A stretch of 64,000 nucleotides of DNA from Candidatus Omnitrophota bacterium. GTDB taxonomy: Bacteria; Omnitrophota; Omnitrophia; Omnitrophales; Aquincolibacteriaceae. The DNA is taken from contig JAKJDL010000002.1 of the NCBI GenBank assembly GCA_022705945.1, forward strand, positions 191,150-255,149, in the 5' to 3' direction. This document shows positions 7,743 through 18,979 of the stretch, in pieces. The number at the start of each line of letters is the position of its first letter. Within the stretch, counting starts at the first letter, position 1. A model generated the notes under the pieces. The model ran no database searches and was not told where the DNA came from. It saw only the letters and a program-made list of their open reading frames with translations. The position numbers were made by a program, and so were the translations under genes.

Positions 7743-8279
7743 ATGAAAAAAATACTGGTAATAGATGATGATGTTCTTGTCCTGAGGGCGATCAGCAAGT
7801 TGCTTACGATGAACAATTACAACGTGACAGAAGCTAAATCCGGCGAGGAGGCGGCGGGAATATTAAGTAGTGCCGATTTTGATTTAATAGTGTCCGACAT
7901 TAGGATGGCGGGGATGGACGGGATTCAGCTTGTTGAACGTTTGAGGAGTTCCGGCAAGAACACGCCGGTGATTTTCGTGACGGGGTATGCGAGCGAAAAT
8001 GCGCCGGTGGAAGCTTATCGGCTTGAGGTTAAGGACTATGTGTTGAAACCCTTTGATAAGGATGATTTGCTTCGCAAAGTCGAAAAGAATCTGGCTCTTC
8101 GGGAAGCGGAATTTGCAAAAAAGGGTGATTTGTGTCGAACCGTGCGTGGCTTGGTGAGAGATTTTGAAAAAAACAATAGCATGAATATTTACGAAAATGA
8201 AAACCTGAAGAAGTTTATCAGCGAACTCAACGCTGCGCTTTTTGCAGAGGAAAAAGAGCAGGCAAAAAAGTATGAATAA
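7743..8279 (+). CDS. response regulator, stand-alone receiver domain with C-terminal coiled-coil tail
   Basis: KILVIDDD..., D at the phospho-site (LIVSDIRM), conserved T/K (FVTGY, LKPF); no DNA-binding output domain. Confidence 0.85.
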   Translation: MKKILVIDDDVLVLRAISKLLTMNNYNVTEAKSGEEAAGILSSADFDLIVSDIRMAGMDGIQLVERLRSSGKNTPVIFVTGYASENAPVEAYRLEVKDYVLKPFDKDDLLRKVEKNLALREAEFAKKGDLCRTVRGLVRDFEKNNSMNIYENENLKKFISELNAALFAEEKEQAKKYE

Positions 8280-9186
8280 TAGAAAGTTGGGATTTTTTTT
8301 GAGCGTTCTTCGGAAAGAGGCGAATTATTTTTGGGAGCGGCTGGTAGTTTTTTCAATTCGGGTAAGATATCGCTATTGGCGGCGTTTATTATGCCGAGTT
8401 GTTGGCAATGCGACATCTCTTGCGGCTCTGTATTACCGTGTTTTTAGACGCCTAAGATTTCGCACAATTCGGTTGTTTGTGTTTTTTGTTTGGAAATTGT
8501 GGCTGGATAAGGTTGAGGGGTTTGAGAATATTTCCTGGAATGAATCTGCGGTTATCGTTTCAAATCATCTCAGTTACTATGATTTCTTTGTTTTGGCGTC
8601 TGTTCTTGAGCGTCAAACCGTATTCATTGCTACCAAAGGGCTAAATGACAGATCGTTTGTGGGATGGTTTATGAAACTGGACACGATTGTTTATGTTGAT
8701 CGCGAAAAGCCGGGTTACGGTTTTTTTAAGGAAATGGTCAGGCAGACGAAGATGAAAAAAAATGTTGTCATCTATCCTGAAGGAACGAGGTCCCGAAGCG
8801 GAAAGATGTTGGCCCCCAAACCGGGATTTATCAAATTGGCGCTTCTTTGCGGAGTGCCCGTCATCCCTCTGGCGATGCGGGGTACTTATGAAATTCTTCC
8901 GCCGCATGAGCATGTTCCCAAGATGAAAAAGTGCAGCATTCATATAGGCGAGAAGCTTTATATTTCACCTTCCAATCCGCTTTTTCGGGATGTTTTTTAC
9001 CGTTGCGCGAAGGATGGCAAGTATACGAATCTGACAGACGAAGGGATCGAAGAAATTGCATTCCGGATTATGAACCGGATCAGGTTAATGTCCGGGCAGG
9101 AGTGGGATGAAAGCGCTCTCCCCAAGGCCAGATTATACGGTCTTGCGGATGCTTCGCCGAGGGCGGTCGAGTTTTGTTGCCAATGA
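8272..9186 (+). CDS. PlsC-like lysophospholipid acyltransferase (second copy)
   Basis: NHLSYYD (HxxxxD) and PEGTRSRSG blocks; ATG at 8272 chosen (the track TTG at 8242 overlaps the RR stop). Confidence 0.8.
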   Translation: MNNRKLGFFLSVLRKEANYFWERLVVFSIRVRYRYWRRLLCRVVGNATSLAALYYRVFRRLRFRTIRLFVFFVWKLWLDKVEGFENISWNESAVIVSNHLSYYDFFVLASVLERQTVFIATKGLNDRSFVGWFMKLDTIVYVDREKPGYGFFKEMVRQTKMKKNVVIYPEGTRSRSGKMLAPKPGFIKLALLCGVPVIPLAMRGTYEILPPHEHVPKMKKCSIHIGEKLYISPSNPLFRDVFYRCAKDGKYTNLTDEGIEEIAFRIMNRIRLMSGQEWDESALPKARLYGLADASPRAVEFCCQ

Positions 9187-9836
9187 AAAAGGCGGCCTTT
9201 TTTGATGTCGATGGCACGCTGGTTGCATGCCAGTCGCAAAAAAAATTTTCCGATTTTTTATTTTCAGAAAAGATACTCGGAGTTTTCCACATTCTTGTAA
9301 TCTCCTGTTGGTTTGCGGGATATCGGCTTGGACTGTTAAGAAGCAGCATTGGCATGAGAAGAGTTTTTTATCGGTTCCTTTCTTTTGATTCGGCCGAGCG
9401 CGTAAACAATCTGATGATAAAGGCATATCAGGATCTTATCCGTCCGGCATTAAACCTGTTCCTGAAAGAGCGTATTTTGGGTCTGAAAAAGCAAGGCTAT
9501 TTGATTGTTCTGCTTTCAGGGACCCTTCAGCAGTTTTGCAACCTGATTGCGGATGAGTTTGGTGCGGATCAAGCTTTCGGGACGAGGCTGATCGTAGAAG
9601 ACGGACATTTCAGAGGGAAATGGGAGGGAGACATTTTAGAAGGAGAGGCAAAGGCCAGGTTTGTGAAGAAATATTCCAAGGCGAATGACATCAGTTTGGA
9701 ACAGAGCATCGCTTATAGTGATAGTTCGGCGGACTTGCCTCTTTTGGAGATTTGCGGTTCTTCCGTTGCGGTCAATCCTGACCCGGCTCTTAAAACAATC
9801 GCTCAATCGCGCTCCTGGGAAATTTTGAATGGCTAA
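9183..9836 (+). CDS. HAD-superfamily hydrolase, subfamily IB (phosphoserine-phosphatase-like)
   Basis: FFDVDGTLV motif I, S/T motif II (LLSGT), K and DSSAD motif III/IV; ATGA overlap with the upstream acyltransferase stop. Confidence 0.75.
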   Translation: MKKAAFFDVDGTLVACQSQKKFSDFLFSEKILGVFHILVISCWFAGYRLGLLRSSIGMRRVFYRFLSFDSAERVNNLMIKAYQDLIRPALNLFLKERILGLKKQGYLIVLLSGTLQQFCNLIADEFGADQAFGTRLIVEDGHFRGKWEGDILEGEAKARFVKKYSKANDISLEQSIAYSDSSADLPLLEICGSSVAVNPDPALKTIAQSRSWEILNG

Positions 9837-12141
9837 TCTTCTGGAACAATACCTGTTGGCGTCGGTACTTACGGCAATCCTGACATTTTTTTTGGCCGTT
9901 CTTGTCAGCTGGAAGAACTACAGGCGGAAGTTGAACATCCTGTATTCGTTTTGGGCGTGCACAGTTGCCCTGTGGAGTCTGATGCTGGTTTTCAACGTGC
10001 TGGCTAAAGACCACGGCACGGCTTTACTATGTGTACGGCTGCTTCATTTCTGGGCGATCCTCCTGCCTGCGGTATATGTTCATTTTGTCTTGCTCTTTCT
10101 CTGCAAGGACGCGGCATTCAACGCGCTTATTAAGGGGACGTATGCCTTTTCGTTTTTACTGATTGCGCTGAATTTCTCACCCTGGTTTTTGTCTGTCGAA
10201 TATCGGGAGAAATTTCGTTTTTTTGCGGCGAAACCCCTCGCTTTTTACCCCATACATATAGCGATGTTCATTGCCTGTGTATGCTTCGCGATCATACAGC
10301 TTTATCTCAGCTGGCGAAAAGCCGAGGGCAGTTTCAAACGGCAGATCTGGTACTTTTTGCTGGCAACCTTAATTGGATATTCGGGCGGGATCACGAATTA
10401 TCTGATTAATTACAACATCCTTATCTATCCTCTTTATCCGTTTGGAAACTTCACAATTTGCGCTTATGTCATTGTGATCGGTTTCGGTATTCTCAAGTAT
10501 CAACTGATGGATATTTCCGTCATCATCAAGCGGACGGTGGTTTTTACTGGGCTGTTCGGTATTTTAATGGCTGTGGTGGGGATAGTTACGACGCTTGCTC
10601 ACAACTATTTGGGACAATTTATCGGGATCGGGCAGACAACACGTCAGATACTGAGCATCCTCATCGCGATGCTGCTGGCTGACCCGATCAGGAAGCTTCT
10701 GGTCAATCTCACGGACAGGTTCCTGTTCCAGAAAAAATATAATTATCACAAGCTCCTGAAAGACGCTTCGCGGGGGATGTCGAACATCGAATCCCTCGAG
10801 CACCTGCTCGGCCTTGTGGTCCATTTCGTGACGATGAAAATGCGCGTGAAGAACGCGTCGGTGCTGATGCGCGACATCCATTCGAGCGATTTCAATCTCG
10901 TTTACCAGCGCGGTTACGACAAAAAATTCCTTTCACTGACCCTGAATGACGAGGATCCGCTGATTGACTATATCGGGCATCATAAGGAGGCGGTCGATAT
11001 CGAGAGGATCAAGGAGAAGATCGAGGCGGCGCGCTACGGACGCAAGGATAAAAAAGAGGCCGATCATTGGGACTATGAGGCGATCCGGGACAGGATGATC
11101 TACCTGCAGGCGACCTGCTGCGTGCCGAGCTTCCTGGGTCGCGAGCTCAAGAACATCCTGATGCTTGGAGAAAAAAAATCGGGCGAACATTACTCTACTG
11201 AGGACCTGAACCTTCTTTACACACTCGCGCAGGAATCCGCTATCGCGATCGAGAACGCGCGGCTCTATGACGAGGCAAAGCGCCGCTCGCTTGATCTCGA
11301 ACAGATCAACGATCAACTTGAGCGTTCACGGGGCCTTTTAGAGCGCGCGCTAAACGAGGCCGAAGGTGCCAATAAACAGCTCCAGGACGCGCAGGCCCAG
11401 CTCATCCACGAGCAGAAGATGGCGACCCTGGGACGTCTGGCGGCTTCGGTCGGTCATGAGGTCAATAACCCGCTCACGATCCTTTCGATGAACGTGTCTC
11501 GCGCGATACTCAAATACCGCAAAGATCCGGATCTCAAGGTCTCCGAGATCATGGATGTGTTCGACAAGATGGAGAAAAATATCGAGCGCATCAAGGCGGT
11601 CGTGAATACCCTCACGGGGCTTCTCAAAAAGTCGGAGAAAGGGAAGTTTGAACCGCTTTCGCTCAAGCTGATCCTGGAAGAGACGCTTCCGCTCGTTCAG
11701 TTTCAGACCTATCTCGATAATCTTTCCGGGACGGAAGTGGATTTCAATGTGCCTGGCAATATCCCGCTCATCCGCGGCGACCTGGAGCGTTTGCAGGAAG
11801 TTTTCCTTAATATGTTCATCAACGCCTATCACGCGATGGCGGGCAAGCGTCACCGGAAGATCGCGGTGCGAGCCGAGATTGATCAGGAAAATCAGGGGAT
11901 GGTCGCGATCCATTTTACCGATAACGGCTGCGGGATGACGGAAGAGGTCCGGAAGAAAATTTTCAATTACGGGTTCACGACGAAGCCCTCCGGCAAAGGG
12001 TCCGGCCTCGGGCTTTACATGTGCAAATATATTATCGAGCTGCACGGCGGCACGGTTTTGGTGAAGTCGCGTCTCGGCGAAGGGACGACGTTTACGCTTA
12101 CGCTTCCGGTGTATGGGGAAGACTTTAAAATCAGCTCATAG
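9829..12141 (+). CDS. sensor histidine kinase, paralog of 5017..7284 (7TM sensor, GAF-like, HisKA, HATPase_c)
   Basis: Same architecture and shared blocks (YQLMDISVIIKRTV vs YRLMDIETVIHKTV; HEVNNPLT). Start overlaps the HAD stop by 8 nt. Confidence 0.85.
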   Translation: MANLLEQYLLASVLTAILTFFLAVLVSWKNYRRKLNILYSFWACTVALWSLMLVFNVLAKDHGTALLCVRLLHFWAILLPAVYVHFVLLFLCKDAAFNALIKGTYAFSFLLIALNFSPWFLSVEYREKFRFFAAKPLAFYPIHIAMFIACVCFAIIQLYLSWRKAEGSFKRQIWYFLLATLIGYSGGITNYLINYNILIYPLYPFGNFTICAYVIVIGFGILKYQLMDISVIIKRTVVFTGLFGILMAVVGIVTTLAHNYLGQFIGIGQTTRQILSILIAMLLADPIRKLLVNLTDRFLFQKKYNYHKLLKDASRGMSNIESLEHLLGLVVHFVTMKMRVKNASVLMRDIHSSDFNLVYQRGYDKKFLSLTLNDEDPLIDYIGHHKEAVDIERIKEKIEAARYGRKDKKEADHWDYEAIRDRMIYLQATCCVPSFLGRELKNILMLGEKKSGEHYSTEDLNLLYTLAQESAIAIENARLYDEAKRRSLDLEQINDQLERSRGLLERALNEAEGANKQLQDAQAQLIHEQKMATLGRLAASVGHEVNNPLTILSMNVSRAILKYRKDPDLKVSEIMDVFDKMEKNIERIKAVVNTLTGLLKKSEKGKFEPLSLKLILEETLPLVQFQTYLDNLSGTEVDFNVPGNIPLIRGDLERLQEVFLNMFINAYHAMAGKRHRKIAVRAEIDQENQGMVAIHFTDNGCGMTEEVRKKIFNYGFTTKPSGKGSGLGLYMCKYIIELHGGTVLVKSRLGEGTTFTLTLPVYGEDFKISS

Positions 12142-12338
12142 CTATTATCTCTTGGTGAAGTTTCTGAGTTTTTGCTATAAGCTATTGACTGCAGGATATC
12201 AGGCTGTTGAAGCGGCCAAAATGCTGAAACGGTTTGATCAGAGCGAAAAAACCTGGCCGGTAGCCTGTGGCAAATTCCGCAGGTTTGGGGTTATCGGTCT
12301 CAAGCTAAGGACCGTCGGCTATAAGCTACGGGTTGCAT
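12133..12338. repeat. intergenic repeat family, copy A (AGCTCATAG...TTTTTGCTATAAGCTATTG... plus a GGTTATCGG / GTCGGCTATAAGCTA unit)
   Basis: Shares its core with the copies at 12695, 13349 and 14254; starts at the HK stop codon. Confidence 0.7.
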
Positions 12339-12339
12339 A

Positions 12340-12696
12340 ATGAAAAAAATCCTGATCGTTGACGACGAGACGGGCATCGTCGAGGAGATCAAAAGTTTCC
12401 TCGCCGAGGAGGGTTATGAAGTGAGGACTGCGGATACCGCGAAGTCGGGGATCCAGGTCCTCGAGGAAATGAACCCGGACGTCGTTTTCATTGACGTGAA
12501 GCTTCCGGATATGTCCGGGATCGAGGTGCTCAGGTTCGCGAAGGAAAAGCATCCGCGGACAAGGACGGTGATGGTCACAGGATATGTGGACCAGAACCTG
12601 ATGGATGAAGCGGAGTCGCTTGGGCGGGACGCGTTTCTCCAGAAGCCCTTTGACCTTATCAGGATCGTGGAAGAAATCGAGTGCCTCACGGCGTAG
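12340..12696 (+). CDS. response regulator, stand-alone receiver domain
   Basis: KILIVDDE, phospho-Asp (VFIDVKLPDMSG), T (MVTGY), K (QKPF); 118 aa. Confidence 0.85.
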   Translation: MKKILIVDDETGIVEEIKSFLAEEGYEVRTADTAKSGIQVLEEMNPDVVFIDVKLPDMSGIEVLRFAKEKHPRTRTVMVTGYVDQNLMDEAESLGRDAFLQKPFDLIRIVEEIECLTA

Positions 12697-12800
12697 CTCA
12701 TGGTCAAGAATCCTCGGTGAATATCTTTTTGATTTTGCCGCAAGCTATTGGCTATAGGTTGTCAGCCGAATGCTGTTGGCTACAGGTTATCGGCTAACCC
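12695..12800. repeat. intergenic repeat family, copy B
   Basis: AGCTCATGGTCAAGAATCCTCGGTGAATATCTTTTTGATTTTGCCGCAAGCTATTGGCTATAGGTTGTCAGCC...GGCTACAGGTTATCGGCTAA. Confidence 0.7.
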
Positions 12801-12814
12801 CGGAGTAATGCCCG

Positions 12815-13357
12815 ATGAATTTTATTCGCACGGAAATAGACGGTGTTGTGATCATTGACCCGAAGGTTTATTCGGACGCGCGGGGTTTCTTCTTTGAAAG
12901 CTACCGCCGGGACATTTTTTTCAAAGAGGGGATCGTGGAGGAATTTGTCCAGGATAATTACAGCTCGTCCCGGAAGGGGGTGCTCCGGGGGCTTCATTTT
13001 CAGATTGAGCCGGAGGCGCAGGCGAAGCTTGTGCGGGTGACGAGGGGTTCGGTTTTTGATGTTGCCGTGGACCTGAGGAAGGGTTCAGGAACGTTCGGGA
13101 AATATTGCGCGGTGACGCTCTCGGCCGAAAACAAAAAGATGCTTTATATTCCCAAAGGGTTCGCTCACGGGTTTTGTGTGCTGGAAGACAACACCGAGTT
13201 CTTCTATAAATGCTCCGGATACTATTCGCCCGCGCACGAGCGAGGGATCATCTGGAATGACCCGCAGCTTGCGATCCCATGGCCGAAGCTCAACTGCGAG
13301 TTCATCCTTTCCGATAAGGACAGGAAGTATCCCACCCTGGAAGCTTATAGCTCATAG
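12815..13357 (+). CDS. rfbC: dTDP-4-dehydrorhamnose 3,5-epimerase
   Basis: Cupin-type RmlC signature (DPKVYSDARGFFFE, GLHFQ, KGFAHGF). Confidence 0.9.
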   Translation: MNFIRTEIDGVVIIDPKVYSDARGFFFESYRRDIFFKEGIVEEFVQDNYSSSRKGVLRGLHFQIEPEAQAKLVRVTRGSVFDVAVDLRKGSGTFGKYCAVTLSAENKKMLYIPKGFAHGFCVLEDNTEFFYKCSGYYSPAHERGIIWNDPQLAIPWPKLNCEFILSDKDRKYPTLEAYSS

Positions 13358-13410
13358 CCAAGAACCTTCGGGAAGTGTTTTTGGGATTTCGCTATCAGCT
13401 GATTTTCGGG
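13349..13410. repeat. intergenic repeat family, copy C
   Basis: AGCTCATAGCCAAGAACCTTCGGGAAGTGTTTTTGGGATTTCGCTATCAGCTGATTTTCGGGG; supplies stop codons to both convergent genes. Confidence 0.65.
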
Positions 13411-13837
13411 GCCGGATATTCCAGCTGTGGGGGAGTGTGACGGGGGCCTTATGCCTGATCTCGACGGGGAAGGTTTTTTTGAAGGTATCATAGAAGCACA
13501 TGCCGGATTCTTTGTGGCAGTAATAGAAAACACCCGTCAAAGTTACGTTCGTTTTTCCCGGGGAACCCCGAAAGAGCAGCTTGTAGGGCGGATTGAACGG
13601 GCTGAAATCCTTGCCACATGTCCGGCCGAAATTGACAATCGAAGCGTCCTCCGAACTGCAACTGAGTTTATAGGGGGAATCCGTTGTGAACTGATATCCC
13701 TCGGGAAGGCTGAAGCGGAGGGCGATTACAGAGGGCTCACCCTCAGGCGTTTTCCCCCGGTCTTTCGGTATCGTGAGGATCAGGAAGAGGGCGACGGCGC
13801 CTGTAGCCAAAACAGCGAAAAGCATCTTCGTTTTCAA
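13352..13837 (-). CDS. hypothetical signal-anchored/secreted protein
   Basis: N-terminal hydrophobic helix (MKTKMLFAVLATGAVALFLILTIP); the last 15-19 codons run into repeat copy C; AT-rich divergent promoter region upstream of its start. Confidence 0.4.
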   Translation of the reverse strand: MKTKMLFAVLATGAVALFLILTIPKDRGKTPEGEPSVIALRFSLPEGYQFTTDSPYKLSCSSEDASIVNFGRTCGKDFSPFNPPYKLLFRGSPGKTNVTLTGVFYYCHKESGMCFYDTFKKTFPVEIRHKAPVTLPHSWNIRPRKSADSEIPKTLPEGSWL

Positions 13838-13965
13838 GAAAACTCCTCCGTCCCTAAAATATTTTATCGCTGCGCCTGTCAGGAAAGTTTAAAATAGTGT
13901 CGCTATGCGCGAAATATTCATAAAATATTATCGTCAAGGATTATTTTATTCCAAACCCTAATTTT

Positions 13966-14011
13966 CACCCACTCCAACACCCGGGCCTAAGTCCCGGTGT
14001 TGGAGTGGGTG
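13966..14011. promoter_or_regulatory. near-perfect 19-20 bp inverted repeat (hairpin, 7-nt loop)
   Basis: CACCCACTCCAACACCCGGG-cctaagt-CCCGGTGTTGGAGTGGGTG, immediately upstream of the RBS/GTG of the DUF167 gene. Confidence 0.5.
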
Positions 14012-14027
14012 AGAGGATGGAAAAGCG

Positions 14028-14246
14028 GTGAAGATTACGGTTACGGTGAAGGCGAATTCGAAAGAGGAGAAAATCGAGGAAACCGGCCCCGGGGAATATC
14101 GCTTGCGGGTCAAGGCCCCGCCGGTTGAGGGCCGTGCGAACGAGGCCGTGATCAAACTTCTCGCCGCTCATTTCGGGGTTCCGAAGAGCCGTGTCGAGAT
14201 CCTGGCGGGCACTTCCTCAAAACGGAAGCTTGTGAGTATCGGATAG
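14028..14246 (+). CDS. DUF167/YggU-family small protein
   Basis: VEGRANEAVIKLLAAHFGVPKSRVEILAGTSSKRKLV matches the YggU consensus; GTG start with a GAGAGGA RBS. Confidence 0.8.
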   Translation: MKITVTVKANSKEEKIEETGPGEYRLRVKAPPVEGRANEAVIKLLAAHFGVPKSRVEILAGTSSKRKLVSIG

Positions 14247-14253
14247 TTCGCGC

Positions 14254-14340
14254 AACTCACAGCCAAGAATCTTCGACGAATACTTTTTTGATTTTGCTAT
14301 ACAGGCCTCAGGCTGTCGGCTATATACTGCAGGCTGAGAG
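14254..14340. repeat. intergenic repeat family, copy D
   Basis: AACTCACAGCCAAGAATCTTCGACGAATACTTTTTTGATTTTGCTATACAGGCCTCAGGCTGTCGGCTATATACTGCAGGCTGAG. Confidence 0.7.
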
Positions 14341-14416
14341 AGTTGAGGGTTTGAATCTGCAGACCGCAGTCGCAGGTTTGTTTCCGCAATCGTTATGCAA
14401 TGCCCGTTGAACGTTG

Positions 14417-14425
14417 TGCTAGAAT
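14417..14425 (+). promoter_or_regulatory. extended -10 promoter element (TGcTAGAAT), 8 nt upstream of the ATG; leaderless candidate
   Basis: TTGAAC at 14407 is too close to act as a -35. TAGAAT ends 8 nt before ATG 14434 and there is no SD. Confidence 0.4.
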
Positions 14426-14433
14426 AAAAAATC

Positions 14434-16782
14434 ATGTTCCGAAAAATCGCCGAATTTATCGATCACTTCCGCTGGCCCGTATTGCTCGCGATGATCGTGA
14501 GTCTTTTCATAATGGGCAACGCGGCCATGCGCCTCAAGGTCGATCCCTCCATCGAGCCCCTCTTCATCAAAAAATCCGAGGAATACAAGTATTACCAGGC
14601 TTACCGCGAGAAATACGGCTCCGACCAGATGATCGCCGTCGCGATGGCCACCGATGATCTTTTTACGGACGAGAACTTCAGGATCCTCAAGAATGTCACA
14701 AAAGGCATCCAGAGCTTCGACCGGGTCGAGCGCGTGATCAGCCTCGCGAACGCCCAGGATATCCGCCACAAATTCCTCGGCGTGAAGACCGAGCTTGCCT
14801 TCAAGGAGGTCGAGGAGGGCGATAAAAGTGTTGCGCAAATGAAAAAGCGCATCCTCGCCAACGAGCTTTACGTGAGCAATATCGTTTCCAAGGACGGAAG
14901 GATAGGGAATATCGTCGTCTATCTGAAAACCGACGGTGATCCTTCCGCAAACGGCGTTTTCATCCAAGACCTCAAAAAATACCTGGAGGATTTTGAAAGG
15001 CCGGGGCTCAAGTTTTACATGGCCGGCGCGCCGGTCGAACAGTATGAGTTTATTCATCTGATCCACCGCGACCAGATGGTCTTTATCCCGACGATCACGG
15101 TGATCCTGATCCTTGTGACTTTTTTGATCTACCGGAGCTTCGCGTGCATGTTCCTCTCCATGTCGATCGTGTTCACGACGCTCGTCTGGACCATGGGGAC
15201 GATCGCGCTCCTCGGCCAGGAGTTGAACCTTATGACTTCGCTCCTCGCGCCCGTGATCATGATCGTCGCGGTGCTGAATGCGACCTACCTGATCAACCTG
15301 TTTTTCGAGATCCGCCCGCATCATGCCAGCCTCAAGGAGTGTGTGCTGTTGACGATCCAGCAGCTCGGGCTTCCGTGTTTCCTCACGCATTTTACGGCGG
15401 TGCTCGGATTTTCGTCGCTCGCCCTGAGCCCGATCCCCGCGATCCAGAGCTTCGGTCTCTACGCCGCGCTCGGGACATTTTACGCTTATATCATCGAGAT
15501 CGTGCTGACGGTGCTTCTACTCCCGATCCTTCCTTACCGACCGAAAAAGATAGACGCTTTCGATGAAAGCCATTTTTTCAACCGGGTTCTGATCGGGTTC
15601 CTCGAGAACCTGGAAGCCCGCTGGCGCTGGCTGATCCTGCTGGTGACGGGTGCCGTTCTCGTTTTATCGATCTTCGGCATCCGGAAGATCGAAGTCGACA
15701 CGAATATCGTCAAGCAGATGAAGCCCAGTCTGCCGCTCGCGATCGCGACCCGTTTTATCGATGAGAACCTCACCGGAGTTTATTCGCTTGGATTCGTGAT
15801 GCGCCGCAAGGACGGCGAGACGATGGTAGATCCGGCCACGCTCAGGCGTCTTGATGAGTTCAAGACCTATCTTGAAGGCGAGCCGGGGATCGCCAAGGTG
15901 AACTCGATCACGACCCTTGTGAAAAAGATCAATGAGGCCCGGGCGGGGGACGACGATAAATACGAGATCCCGGGGAAGCCGGAACTCCTGAAGCTTTATT
16001 TCAAGGGGATGGTGAAATCGGGGGATCCCGAGCTTTGGAAGATGATCTCCGAAGATCTCAAAGAGGTCCGGATCGAGGCCCGGATGAAGGCTATCGGCAC
16101 GACGCAGGGGGCGGCCCTGGAAGACAGGATCCGGGAGTATCTGGACACGAACATGAGCCGTTATTTTGAATACAAGCTGACGGGGAACGTGGTCCTGCTC
16201 GGAAAGATTTCAAAAGCGCTTGTTCACGAGCAGTCGCAGAGATTCGGGTTTGCCTTTGCTTCCATCCTGACCGTGATCGTTCTTATCTTCCGCTCCCTGC
16301 GCCTGGGAATGCTTGCCGCGATCCCGAATCTTCTTCCGATCCTCGCGGTCTACGGGTTCATGGGCTACGTGGGGATCGAACTTTCAACGGCGACGGCGAT
16401 GATCGCTTCAATCGTGCTCGGGCTTGTGGTGGACGCGTCGATCCAGTTCATCTACCGTTTCGAAAAAGAGTTCCAGCACCGTTTCCACTACCTGCAATCC
16501 CTCCACCACACCTACCGGAACGTCGGTCAGTCGATGGTGCTTTCGGCGCTGATCCTCTGCCTGGGGTTTGCGTCGAGTGTTTTCGCTAGCTTCAGGATCA
16601 CGGTCCATTTCGGGGTTCTGACAAGCCTCACGATTTTTCTCGCGCTCCTCTGCTCGCTTCTTGTTATGCCGGTGTTTCTCGTGATGATCAAGCCCTTCGG
16701 GCCCCAGCGGCTTTTTAAGAGAAAGCTCAAGGGGGGGGATTCGTTCCACGGCCAGCGGCCCGGCCCGCCTGATGGTATATAA
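14434..16782 (+). CDS. MMPL/RND-superfamily exporter (HpnN-like, sterol-sensing-domain type)
   Basis: 782 aa with two 6-TM bundles, each preceded by a large periplasmic loop; MMPL-like topology and motifs. Confidence 0.85.
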   Translation: MFRKIAEFIDHFRWPVLLAMIVSLFIMGNAAMRLKVDPSIEPLFIKKSEEYKYYQAYREKYGSDQMIAVAMATDDLFTDENFRILKNVTKGIQSFDRVERVISLANAQDIRHKFLGVKTELAFKEVEEGDKSVAQMKKRILANELYVSNIVSKDGRIGNIVVYLKTDGDPSANGVFIQDLKKYLEDFERPGLKFYMAGAPVEQYEFIHLIHRDQMVFIPTITVILILVTFLIYRSFACMFLSMSIVFTTLVWTMGTIALLGQELNLMTSLLAPVIMIVAVLNATYLINLFFEIRPHHASLKECVLLTIQQLGLPCFLTHFTAVLGFSSLALSPIPAIQSFGLYAALGTFYAYIIEIVLTVLLLPILPYRPKKIDAFDESHFFNRVLIGFLENLEARWRWLILLVTGAVLVLSIFGIRKIEVDTNIVKQMKPSLPLAIATRFIDENLTGVYSLGFVMRRKDGETMVDPATLRRLDEFKTYLEGEPGIAKVNSITTLVKKINEARAGDDDKYEIPGKPELLKLYFKGMVKSGDPELWKMISEDLKEVRIEARMKAIGTTQGAALEDRIREYLDTNMSRYFEYKLTGNVVLLGKISKALVHEQSQRFGFAFASILTVIVLIFRSLRLGMLAAIPNLLPILAVYGFMGYVGIELSTATAMIASIVLGLVVDASIQFIYRFEKEFQHRFHYLQSLHHTYRNVGQSMVLSALILCLGFASSVFASFRITVHFGVLTSLTIFLALLCSLLVMPVFLVMIKPFGPQRLFKRKLKGGDSFHGQRPGPPDGI

Positions 16783-16800
16783 AAAAAAGTATAAAAAAAA

Positions 16801-16829
16801 GATGCAAATATTTTGTTTATGGATATAAT
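16801..16829 (+). promoter_or_regulatory. promoter-like -10 (GATATAAT) upstream of the DUF11 lipoprotein gene
   Basis: TATAAT at 16824-16829 in an A-rich spacer; a 65-nt leader with a strong SD (AAGGAGG) follows. Confidence 0.35.
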
Positions 16830-16894
16830 CAACGCCTGCTGACAGTTATCGTAGACTGAGCTAACACAGCTTTAACCAACCAAGGAGGCATCAA

Positions 16895-18367
16895 ATGAAG
16901 CTCTCAAAGAGTCTCATGACGGTACTCGCCCTGGTTCTTGTTGTCGGAACGGGATTGGTCCTTTCCGGCTGCGCGACCTGTTGTGGTGAGTCAGCTCCTG
17001 CAAAACCGGCAATGAAGTGCGCGTTCGGTGTGCAGGGGTGCAATAAAGACGCAAGCGCGGTTTGGATCGAGAAATCGATGCCTGACCAGGTTGTGGTCGG
17101 ACAACCTTTTCAATACACTCTTCAGGTGACAAATCTTCGGGGCTGCGCTCTGGAAGATGTGGTCATAGTTGAGCGTGCATCGGATGGACTGCAGATTCAA
17201 TCCGGTGAAGAGGGTCTGAATATTGGTTTCATGAAACCTAATGAAGTGAGACAGATTGTTTTGACGGCCGTTGCGAGTCAGGGCGGCAGTCCTTCGACCT
17301 GCACGACGGCAGATTACAAGCCGGTGCTGTGCTGCGGGACGGAAGCGATCTCTCCGAGCCTGGCGATAGCGCTTGAGGCTCAGGCTACGGGCACACCGTG
17401 CGATGTTATCCCTGCGAAAGTCACCGTTTCGAACCCCGGAACGGGCATGGCTCGCAATGCCAACATCAGCATGGATCTTCCGAAGGGTCTCACGACGACG
17501 GATGGCCAGTCCAGCGTGATGATCAATGTCGGCGATCTTGCCGGCAATGATGCGAAGGCTTACAACGTCAACTTGAAATCCGCGCAGTCGGGTTCTTACT
17601 CGATTAAGGCGAATGCGGAGGCTTCGGGTCTGACGGCTGCGTCCAACGCGGTAACGATTGACGTGAGAAACTGCGACCTGAACGCCAGCGTGAGCGGTCC
17701 GGCCAAGGTATTCATCACGAAGGATGCAAGCTATAAAGTTTCGGTGCAGAACACCGGTGACGCGGATGCCGCCAGTACGGACGTGACGGCGAGCATTCCC
17801 GCCGGAATGAAGTATGTATCGGCTTCAAACGGCGGTTCGGTGTCCGGCAATTCCGTGGTTTGGAATGTCGGGACGCTCGGGGCGGGGAAGAGCGTATCGA
17901 TGGATATGACTCTTAACGCTGTGAGCGGCGGTTCCGGCATGAGCGTGGCGACGGCGAAAGCCTATTGCTGCCAGGGTGAGGGAAGCTGCCCGACCAACAT
18001 CGAAGGGATCCCGGCGCTTCTGTTGGAAGCGATTGACGTGGCAGACCCGATCCAGGTTGGGGGTACGGAGAAGTATTACATCACCGTGACCAACCAGGGC
18101 TCGGCGCCTGATACGAACATCGTTTTGAGCGTCGGCTTTGAGGAGCAGTTTGATTACCAGTCCTCGAATGGTCCGACGGCCGCGGTGAAAGAAAGCGTCA
18201 AGAGCGTGGAATTTGCACCGCTAGCCTCTCTTGCGGCGGGTCAGAAAGCGACTTGGGAAGTGATTGGCAAGGCCAAGTCGGTTGGTGATCACCGCACCTC
18301 CATCAAGATCACGAGCGATTTTCTCAAGAGATCGGTGGACGAGACAGAATCAACCCACGTTTATTAA
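16895..18367 (+). CDS. cell-surface lipoprotein with DUF11 (conserved repeat domain) repeats
   Basis: Lipobox LVLSGC; repeated V(T/S)VxNxG...blocks typical of DUF11; several Cys pairs. Confidence 0.75.
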   Translation: MKLSKSLMTVLALVLVVGTGLVLSGCATCCGESAPAKPAMKCAFGVQGCNKDASAVWIEKSMPDQVVVGQPFQYTLQVTNLRGCALEDVVIVERASDGLQIQSGEEGLNIGFMKPNEVRQIVLTAVASQGGSPSTCTTADYKPVLCCGTEAISPSLAIALEAQATGTPCDVIPAKVTVSNPGTGMARNANISMDLPKGLTTTDGQSSVMINVGDLAGNDAKAYNVNLKSAQSGSYSIKANAEASGLTAASNAVTIDVRNCDLNASVSGPAKVFITKDASYKVSVQNTGDADAASTDVTASIPAGMKYVSASNGGSVSGNSVVWNVGTLGAGKSVSMDMTLNAVSGGSGMSVATAKAYCCQGEGSCPTNIEGIPALLLEAIDVADPIQVGGTEKYYITVTNQGSAPDTNIVLSVGFEEQFDYQSSNGPTAAVKESVKSVEFAPLASLAAGQKATWEVIGKAKSVGDHRTSIKITSDFLKRSVDETESTHVY

Positions 18368-18685: not shown

Positions 18686-18906
18686 CCTTGGCGGCGATAT
18701 TAATAACCTTATCCCGGGGAGTTACGTTGAGCGTGTGCGCGTTTTAAAGCAACGTTTCCTTTATTTTTTTTGATGTTTCCTGTAGAATGCGCGCTCCGAA
18801 CGGTGGTTTTGTGCGCCGTTGAGTCTTTCACCCTTCCGCGATTCCTCGCGGGTGGACAGTCGGTGGTCTGTTGCCGGCTCAATGATATTTTCGGAGTAAT
18901 GTTTTT

Positions 18907-18979
18907 GCTGGCGTAGCTCAGTTGGTAGAGCAGCTGTTTTGTAAACAGCGGGTCGGGGGTTCAAATCCCTCCGCCAGCT
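18907..18979 (+). tRNA. tRNA-Thr (anticodon UGU)
   Basis: Cloverleaf: GCTGGCG acceptor, GCTC/GAGC D-stem, GCTGT/ACAGC anticodon stem with loop TTTGTAA, GGGGG-TTCAAAT-CCCTC T-arm. Confidence 0.9.

Follow-up and report, generated by a model that had tools for sequence, protein, structure and literature searches.

A local family of degenerate, heptamer-associated intercistronic repeats in a conserved Omnitrophota operon

Within a 64,000-nucleotide stretch of contig JAKJDL010000002.1 from a Candidatus Omnitrophota bacterium (assembly GCA_022705945.1, positions 191,150 to 255,149; hereafter the window), four related sequence elements, which we call copies A to D, lie at gene ends of an operon whose genes encode a seven-transmembrane histidine kinase (HK), a receiver-only response regulator (RR), dTDP-4-dehydrorhamnose 3,5-epimerase (RfbC), a conserved secreted protein (SEC), a DUF167/YggU-family protein and an MMPL-family transporter. 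The copies form a family with a common anatomy of two inverted arms around a T-rich loop, and the gaps that hold A, B and D display a 7-nt periodicity; the family is absent from related Omnitrophota, many of which carry analogous arrays in the gaps of the same operon. We consider it reasonably probable, judging from sequence comparison, that the four copies are a local, lineage-specific, non-coding intercistronic family, namely the version, in Candidatus Omnitrophica bacterium ADurb.Bin277, of a heptamer filler found between the genes of this operon in many related Omnitrophota. The feature is real but ordinary in kind: it is a decayed variant of lineage-specific intergenic repeats, found in one operon within 64 kb, and not a new regulatory system.

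An ungapped repeat search with copy B as the reference recovered a family of direct repeats at 12691-12738 (B), 13345-13392 (C) and 14250-14297 (D). Copies C and D are 69-79% identical to B without gaps and 67% identical to each other, and the core common to B (from 12695), C (from 13349) and D (from 14254) spans about 48 nt at 67-79% pairwise identity. The 23-nt core of the initial annotation occurs three times with at most three mismatches, where 100 shuffles gave an expectation of zero. Copy A (from 12133) is far more diverged, with an ungapped identity of 44-50% to the other copies. When each copy was left out in turn from an nhmmer search of the 64 kb, the omitted copy was the best non-training match every time (E = 8e-4 for A, 9e-10 for B, 3e-8 for C and 3.5e-8 for D). 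Copy A is a true and significant, though weaker, member. The substitutions are strongly biased towards transitions, B and D differing in their cores by ten transitions and no transversions (11:4 for B-C, 12:4 for C-D). As the copies differ by 21-56%, any spread of the family must be old.

The family is confined to this operon as far as the searched DNA extends. A profile hidden Markov model of the four copies found no other site at E<0.1 in the window, and about 3 kb of added flanking sequence, obtained through an exact-protein look-up, contained no further copy. The sub-unit motifs GGCTAYAGG, GGYTRTCRGC and GCTATAAGCTA are likewise confined almost wholly to 12.1-14.4 kb, apart from two single strays at 13800 (minus strand) and 16089.

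All copies are tied to stop codons, as had been proposed from the first inspection. The HK and RfbC stops both fall within AGCTCATAG, the first two bases of copy B overlap the RR stop, and copy D begins 7 nt past the DUF167 stop. Copies A, B and D are intergenic and start 0-7 nt from the stop codon of the upstream gene, near the 3′ end of its reading frame. Copy C is not intergenic, because RfbC on the plus strand and SEC on the minus strand converge and overlap by 6 nt; the whole of copy C is read as the last ~17 codons of SEC (KSADSEIPKTLPEGSWL, then the stop). SEC is a real gene: its product can be aligned to homologues from every relative, in which the residues Y.C..S.MCF are invariant, and has a signal-peptide-like N-terminus. 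The true gap between SEC and DUF167 (13838-14027) has no repeat copy. Therefore, of the proposal that the copies occupy every gap from HK to the MMPL gene and nowhere else, the second half stands within the 64 kb and the first does not.

The core is laid out as a 10-nt arm, AGCTCATAGC, a T-rich loop of 31-33 nt (CAAGAAYCYTCGGNGAA to TTTTTGATTTT) and an inverted arm, GCTATNAGCT. Between the arms, 78% of the cells of the alignment are paired, as compared with 28-47% when the partner column is slid, and one compensatory change from A-U to G-C is seen, which in a set of four sequences is not above shuffles. In copy D, just 3-4 of these pairs are left. The T-run lies inside the loop, 5′ of the second arm, unlike the arrangement of an intrinsic terminator, in which a G+C-rich stem is followed by a U tract.

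Downstream of their cores, copies A, B and D run on as degenerate 7-nt-periodic strings; no such string follows C. The string after A is 76% identical over 33 nt to the 3′ part of B, and in the distal string of the A gap the 3′ arm GCTATAAGCT recurs at 12318-12327. The heptamers after B match at lag 7 with a frequency of 0.47 and at lag 28 with 0.68. GCAG-type units close the D string (14357-14376, CTGCAGACCGCAGTCGCAGG), and this unit type is also present in the related locus L013 (L numbers designate the compared loci throughout).

The periodicity was examined gap by gap at lags 7 and 14 against 2000 dinucleotide shuffles. The z-scores were 2.3 for the A gap and 4.3 for both the B and the D gap, with copy C at 0.8; only 1 of the 2000 shuffles reached the observed value in the B gap and none did so in the D gap. 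Eleven other gaps of the window, taken as a control, gave z-scores from −2.4 to +1.7. The pooled lag-7 match reached 0.34 for the gaps of the window; in 65 gaps from relatives it was 0.36, against a background of 0.25, and coding sequence gave 0.22. A lag-7 scan across the whole window gave no significance on its own, and it is the per-gap shuffle tests together with the comparison with relatives that make the periodicity convincing. Both the 7-nt period and the inverted arms, which tie the element to the heptamer arrays of related Omnitrophota, had been overlooked in the initial annotation. The sole other array-like sequence seen in the window is a short heptamer-like string, GGTGGACAGTCGGTGGTCTGTTGCCGG, at 18848-18880, just upstream of a tRNA at 18907; it shares GTCGGTGGTCTG with an array of L012.

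For comparison with relatives, we assembled 5 loci through an exact-protein look-up and 15 through a search with the SEC alignment; since L055 duplicates the sequence of L053, it was excluded, and 19 distinct Omnitrophota loci remain. The gene order HK-RR-RfbC-SEC-DUF167-MMPL is kept in all 19. The locus of the window itself was found on ten contigs from anaerobic-digester data sets at 99.9-100% identity, nine of them identical, so that there is no within-species variation to use.

The core does not occur in these relatives. Its profile had no match in the five relatives against which it was run, and a short-word blastn comparison of the A and D gaps with the 19 loci had no match apart from the 3′ end of the D gap, which is shared, no core being visible in the gap sequences. 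The core pattern had no match in the GTDB representative genomes, a set that does not contain the window's own genome. A metagenome scan for the core gave 39 matches, of which L044 alone is real and represents the same locus; the other 38 are chance matches that do not extend into the rest of the core. Most of these chance matches read L-T/I-V/A-K-N-L-R in translation, a peptide typical of ABC-ATPase N-termini; a relic of the 5′ end of an ABC-ATPase gene was considered for the core and rejected as a coincidence of a common peptide. The middle of the A gap (12216-12283) has no similarity to the genes inserted in the HK-RR gaps of relatives.

What the relatives do carry in these gaps is of the same general kind. 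In many of them, the gaps are 60-200 nt long and share a layout: 3-7 degenerate heptamers (octamers in L059) form a forward array that begins at the stop codon or a few bases past it, next comes a central loop, often with an inner G+C hairpin or a run of T/A, and in many gaps an inverted array lies just 5′ of the next start codon. Several gaps (e.g. in L054, L057 and L068) have little or no array, and strong arrays are almost confined to gaps. The unit families vary by genome and by gap, yet they recur across genomes, and one unit family may fill consecutive gaps, as it does in the window, in L012 (GGATGGN), L059 (AGTGTCAG) and L060 (GACTGCA). In L065, CCGATAGCTAATAGCTCATAGC-TTTTGAAATTATC (loop)-AGCTATAA follows the RfbC stop directly and agrees with copy C in arm sequence and position. 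Of the relatives' gaps, 46% fold at z<−2, and the 25 stop-proximal nucleotides pair with the 30 start-proximal nucleotides of the same gap at a mean of −12.6 kcal/mol, as compared with −9.5 kcal/mol for pairs taken across genomes (Mann-Whitney p=1.5e-4).

Two loci or groups of loci are particularly instructive. L011, the closest relative with a full-length HK (76% identity), has genes that nearly abut, with gaps of 37, 1, 12 and 6 nt and no element, which shows that the elements are not needed for the operon. L058-L060 hold a CAACG/CGTTG hairpin between DUF167 and MMPL, and the D gap of the window keeps both flanks of this hairpin, with copy D in its interior. The downstream flank, which is orthologous to L058-L060 (86% over 37 nt to L059), lies outside the repeat family (Table 1).

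The same downstream flank carries an extended −10-like motif. The sequence TGCTAGAAT ends 8 nt before the ATG of the MMPL gene (14434), and TGnTA(G/A)AAT is present 6-9 nt upstream of the MMPL start in nearly all genomes (14417-14425 in the window; L053-L069). This conservation suggests that MMPL may have its own promoter and a leaderless or very-short-leader mRNA.

Table 1. Coordinates of the repeat copies, associated strings and operon genes in the window, and distribution of the heptamer unit families among loci.
Feature	Coordinates	Strand	Description
Copy A core	12133..12183	+	5′ arm AGCTCATAGC at 12133-12142, holding the HK stop TAG (12139-12141); 31-nt loop; 3′ arm GCTATAAGCT at 12174-12183
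Heptamer string after A	12173..12214	+	TGCTATA AGCTATT GACTGCA GGATATC AGGCTGT TGAAGCG
Distal heptamer string of the A gap	12284..12337	+	TTATCGG TCTCAAG CTAAGGA CCGTCGG CTATAAG CTACGGG; runs up to the RR start
Copy B core	12695..12746	+	5′ arm AGCTCATGGT, its first AG being part of the RR stop TAG (12694-12696); loop CAAGAATCCTCGGTGAATATCTTTTTGATTTT; 3′ arm GCCGCAAGCT
Nine degenerate heptamers after B	12738..12800	+	CCGCAAG CTATTGG CTATAGG TTGTCAG CCGAATG CTGTTGG CTACAGG TTATCGG CTAACCC
Copy C core	13349..13400	+	5′ arm AGCTCATAGC, holding the RfbC stop (13355-13357); loop; 3′ arm GCTATCAGCT
Copy D core	14254..14305	+	5′ arm AACTCACAGC; loop CAAGAATCTTCGACGAATACTTTTTTGATTTT; degenerate 3′ arm GCTATACAGG
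Heptamer-periodic string after D	14295..14376	+	TGCTATA CAGGCCT CAGGCTG TCGGCTA TATACTG CAGGCTG ...; ends in GCAG-type units
Remnant of GCGCAAC/CAACGNN 5′ array	14247..14256	+	TTCGCGCAAC; the array follows the DUF167 stop in L058-L060; D begins right after
Remnant of inverted CGTTGNN array with extended −10-like motif	14405..14425	+	CGTTGAACGTTGTGC (14405-14419) and TGCTAGAAT (14417-14425)
7TM histidine kinase (HK)	9829..12141	+	upstream of A
Receiver-only response regulator (RR)	12340..12696	+	between A and B
dTDP-4-dehydrorhamnose 3,5-epimerase (RfbC)	12815..13357	+	between B and C
Conserved secreted protein (SEC)	13352..13837	-	converges on RfbC; 3′ end is copy C
DUF167/YggU-family protein	14028..14246	+	upstream of D
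MMPL-family transporter	14434..16782	+	downstream of D
Unit family GACTGCA/GACTAGA			L013, L056, L060, L063, L069
Unit family GGCGTAC			L056, L065, L066, L069; weak form in L062
Unit family CAACGNN			L058-L060
Unit family AGTGTCAG			L054, L059, L067, L068; inverted form in L064
Unit family GGATGGN			L012, L063; weak form in L053
Unit family ATAGCTN			this window, L065, L066, L067, L012 470-560

Several observations concern SEC and its surroundings. In L069 (5362-5442) and L056 (3338-3378), the SEC frame reads on through heptamer arrays that have no in-frame stop, as at copy C of the window, and this gives SEC variable C-terminal tails in these two loci. SEC is inverted relative to the operon in the window and in five related loci (L011, L053/L055, L065 and L066, L053 and L055 being one sequence) and co-oriented in 13 others (L013, L054, L056-L064, L067-L069); the flip of this single gene sits in a region flanked by inverted-array elements. 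Between the divergent starts of SEC and DUF167, at 13965-14012, lies a near-perfect 20-bp inverted repeat (TCACCCACTCCAACACCCGG / CCCGGTGTTGGAGTGGGTGA) with an 8-nt loop. The gap that contains it folds at z=−7.1 against shuffles, and the hairpin is unrelated to the repeat family. Elsewhere in the window, a 526-aa AlaDH/shikimate-DH-like gene at 829-2409 (public gene calls; 930-2510 in L070) shows that this region is coding and is not a 700-nt gap.

The HK-RR gaps of some relatives hold small inserted genes between forward and inverted heptamer arrays (L056 1164-1644, L060 661-1198, L012 10308-11053 and L069 3212-4391). The inserts encode a PF05635 23S-rRNA-intervening-sequence protein in L056 and L060 and a GIY-YIG nuclease in L012 and L069, the latter locus also having a nucleotidyltransferase; hairpin repeats of the TCGCAATGAC type lie on either side of the inserted GIY-YIG genes.

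In the reading that we favour, heptamer arrays would originate by slippage, and the arrays, or a small element nested in them, may then be copied between neighboring gaps by gene conversion or template switching. Copying of this kind would explain the presence of one unit family in several consecutive gaps of a single genome. In relatives, a stop-side array and an inverted start-side array would let the transcript fold into a long hairpin. This position and these long stems suggest that the action of the arrays, if there is any, takes place in the mRNA: the arrays could provide a stem-loop at the end of a cistron, or a spacer, that separates or processes cistrons or protects upstream 3′ ends, or else a stem-loop by which stop and start codons are brought close to each other. 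The copies in the window, the arms of which are short and the folds of which are weak in this genome, are probably decaying and close to neutral.

A number of results weigh against this reading. No relative has a counterpart of the conserved, non-periodic 31-nt loop, and it is consequently through arms, periodicity and position that the family is linked to the class of heptamer arrays. Copy C is aperiodic and is translated on the opposite strand. The window arrays are too degenerate for Tandem Repeats Finder, which at a score of at least 30 reported no array in 12.1-14.4 kb save a 2-copy 10-mer inside RfbC; at a strict threshold of 0.68 lag-7 identity, no 28-nt stretch of positions 8001-18000 qualified, whereas many relatives pass. 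Fold z-scores of the copies and of whole gaps range from +0.4 to −1.7 against dinucleotide shuffles, which amounts to no significant structure, and stop-to-start pairing in the window gaps (−6.9, −9.2 and −12.2 kcal/mol, with a control mean of −9.5 kcal/mol) does not display the pattern of the relatives. Finally, the searched DNA of this genome amounts to 64 kb, and it is within that stretch that the family is local.

The best-surviving alternative sees in the core a very small mobile element of the non-autonomous kind, resembling a miniature inverted-repeat transposable element, that was inserted four times in one orientation into existing heptamer arrays or hairpins just past stop codons; cyanobacterial small dispersed repeats offer a comparison. 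The single orientation and the conserved interior of all copies agree with such an origin, and so does the acceptance by the same gaps in relatives of GIY-YIG and 23S-rRNA-intervening-sequence-protein genes. Furthermore, the last residues of HK (…EDFKISS, then the stop) are unlike the tails of its orthologues, and the final 2-4 residues of both HK and RfbC differ from those of orthologues, as if the element had supplied the stop codon. Considering (i) the retained hairpin flanks on both sides of copy D, (ii) these altered last residues, and (iii) the empty, nearly abutting junctions of L011, an insertion component is favoured. Against insertion of a mobile element, consistent terminal inverted repeats or target-site duplications are not visible in the copies, the 64 kb hold no other copy despite ~55 gene boundaries, the ~50 window ORFs (open reading frames) include no transposase, RAYT (Y1 transposase), integrase or reverse transcriptase, the sole other real metagenome match is the same locus, and the divergence of the copies places any spread in the past. 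The window shows neither terminal repeats nor target duplications and holds no further copies or mobility genes, which argues against an active mobile element, and we regard the four-insertion scenario as unlikely, though not negligible.

Alternatively, selection might keep the ~50-nt core as a cis-acting structured RNA (a processing site, a stability element or an attenuator) that sets the relative expression of HK, RR, RfbC, DUF167 and MMPL. The core does sit at cistron 3′ ends in the sense orientation, with arms able to pair; B, C and D could also form an inner helix (CAAGAA/UUUUUG) that includes a conserved G-U; the B-D differences are exclusively transitions; and relatives have long hairpins at the same places. 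The structural evidence from the window points the other way. Single-sequence folds on both strands gave minimum-free-energy structures that are unlike between copies, none of the folds beats shuffles, and covariation is no better than in shuffles, so that neither a significant structure nor significant covariation was obtained and the "structured" character attributed to the element at first is not borne out. Rfam returned only 3 tRNAs from the whole window at the gathering threshold and, at E<=10 over 12050-14480, only sub-threshold chance matches, all of them outside the copies; these results, together with a single compensatory pair among four sequences, speak against the small RNA family that had also been suggested. 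A terminator scan found no terminator-like site in any copy, and a promoter scan found none inside the copies, the −35/−10 candidates picked by eye differing from copy to copy. The core is, moreover, missing from relatives with the same operon, and copy C lies within a coding region of the opposite strand. A structured cis-acting RNA kept by selection is quite improbable.

Still less support remains for an array of operators or binding sites of a local DNA-binding regulator, which the initial annotation had tentatively linked to the adjacent orphan receivers. In favour of such an array, repetition of the motif is limited to a single two-component-system operon, and its quasi-palindromic AGCT/ATAGCTAT units look like protein-binding sites. 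Both response regulators of the cluster (178 aa and 118 aa), however, have a receiver domain only at Pfam E<=0.1, without a DNA-binding, output or ANTAR domain; relatives keep the regulators and lack the motif; the sites are at gene ends, with one of them inside a gene, and not at promoters; and the one conserved promoter-like motif, TGnTARAAT before MMPL, is outside the repeat. We consider this explanation very unlikely.

A coding function of the repeats, be it for small proteins or for frame-shifted C-terminal extensions, is equally hard to maintain. All four copies can be read through without a stop in one frame (AHSQESS..FLIL..GYxLxA), some of the B-D differences look synonymous, and at copy A a 75-aa ORF (12113-12340) overlaps the HK end and the RR start, ending in TAATG. 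This ORF has no homologue but itself among 5.8 billion proteins and no Pfam match. The open frame is in varying phase relative to the upstream genes, the B and D frames close 16-27 nt short of the following start codon, a spacing of 28 nt puts the two 'GYRLSA' units of B in different frames, and minus-strand frames appear equally 'synonymous' by inspection. The 7-nt period itself accounts for the open frames and for the 7-residue 'GYxLxxA' pattern with its seemingly synonymous changes, because three heptamers make 21 nt, that is, seven codons. A coding role is highly unlikely, if anything a shade more so than an operator role. The ORF at copy A is annotated in GenBank as the hypothetical protein BWY42_01015 and is probably a spurious gene call.

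That the copies are attC cassette recombination sites of an integron can practically be dismissed: a repeat past the stop codons of several consecutive, functionally unrelated small genes would suit such sites, but no RYYYAAC ... GTTRRRY core sites were found at the copy ends (regular-expression search of the four copies on both strands), the window has no integrase, and the same gene order without the repeats in relatives means that the genes are not cassettes.

A more ambitious proposal would join several of the above elements into an undescribed trait of a group of related Omnitrophota, seen for this operon, of which the repeats of the window would be the part that shows. Heptamer insertions would fold so that the upstream stop meets the downstream start at the base of one long hairpin, which would loop the insertion out and either keep translational coupling or make RNase III-type sites; the insertions would serve as landing pads for small selfish genes (GIY-YIG, 23S-rRNA-intervening-sequence protein), and the arrays would be made and homogenised between neighbouring gaps by a dedicated or polymerase-specific mechanism. 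Taken as a whole, this conjunction is speculative and on the unlikely side.

Returning to the lineage-specific family, we recommend that the repeats of the window be annotated as non-coding intercistronic repeats and not as an operator set, a small RNA family or gene cassettes. Their interest lies mainly in the pattern to which they lead, one common to related Omnitrophota loci, rather than in any role as a regulatory device. In this conserved operon, the genes are stable and the gaps turn over fully, being refilled time and again from the stop codons with 7-nt-periodic strings that often form inverted arrays. The loci provide a natural series for studying effects on polycistronic mRNA, which starts with abutting genes (L011), passes through the long perfect hairpins of L060 and L063 and ends with the decayed copies of the window, and they extend the heptameric-repeat phenomenon of cyanobacteria and xanthomonads to an uncultured phylum.

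Among known systems, RNase III intercistronic hairpins, as in the early mRNA of phage T7, and the stems of 23S rRNA intervening sequences resemble the gaps of the relatives, which have long imperfect intercistronic stems, some with a PF05635 (23S_rRNA_IVP) gene in the loop; for the window, the analogy is functional only, its stems of ~9-10 bp being too short for a canonical RNase III site. Systems of the ANTAR/EutV type are set apart by the absence of an ANTAR-domain response regulator from the cluster.

Mycobacterial interspersed repetitive units (MIRUs) are 40-100-bp repeats that fill intercistronic gaps as tandem direct copies, with small ORFs overlapping the upstream stop and the downstream start; they were reportedly first seen by Supply et al., in 1997, in the senX3-regX3 two-component operon. 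The window repeats are similar in that they lie in operon gaps, including that of a kinase-regulator pair, in the orientation of the flanking genes and with overlap of stop codons. Unlike MIRUs, they occur as one copy per gap, and a small ORF of the MIRU type is present only at A, where it has no homologues.

Repetitive extragenic palindromes (REPs), bacterial interspersed mosaic elements (BIMEs) and REPINs (for the latter, see PMC3116915) are species-specific extragenic repeats at gene 3′ ends, also inside operons, with imperfect inverted symmetry and a proposed role in mRNA 3′-end protection; REPs are compact palindromes of 20-40 nt that number tens to hundreds per genome and are linked to a RAYT transposase. 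The copies share with them lineage specificity, location at 3′ gene ends within an operon and inverted symmetry, so that this part of the REP/BIME-like assignment first made is apt. The compact palindrome is replaced in the window by 10-nt arms (with one mismatch) that are 31-33 nt apart, and within the 64 kb there are four copies, all in one operon, and no RAYT.

The nearest counterparts are the short tandemly repeated repetitive (STRR) sequences of Calothrix and Nostoc, said to go back to work by Mazel et al. in 1990, and similar repeats of other bacteria. As for the STRR type, the 7-nt unit is found in the A, B and D gaps and not in C, the position agrees, and near-perfect head-to-tail copies are lacking. 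Heptameric intergenic repeats are described for Xanthomonas (GGGAATC), Nostoc (GGGGAYT) and Calothrix, where they lie near the 3′ ends of upstream ORFs, partly as inverted pairs, and vary strongly between related genomes while their flanks are conserved; polymerase slippage has been proposed as their source (PMC4692102). The window shares with them the 7-nt unit, the intergenic location near the 3′ end of the preceding ORF, in many cases with flanking genes in the same orientation, and lineage-specific units, and the Omnitrophota gaps in general share inverted pairs, which occur in some species, and the variation of length and sequence while the flanking genes stay. The differences are that the window units are very degenerate and lie around a non-periodic 31-nt loop that is conserved among the four copies, that several unit families coexist in one genome, that the host phylum is Omnitrophota and that no G-quadruplex potential is evident. 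A literature search of limited scope found no description of such arrays in Omnitrophota. The closest known relatives of the repeats described here are thus the heptameric intergenic repeats of cyanobacteria and Xanthomonas, followed by REP/BIME and MIRU.

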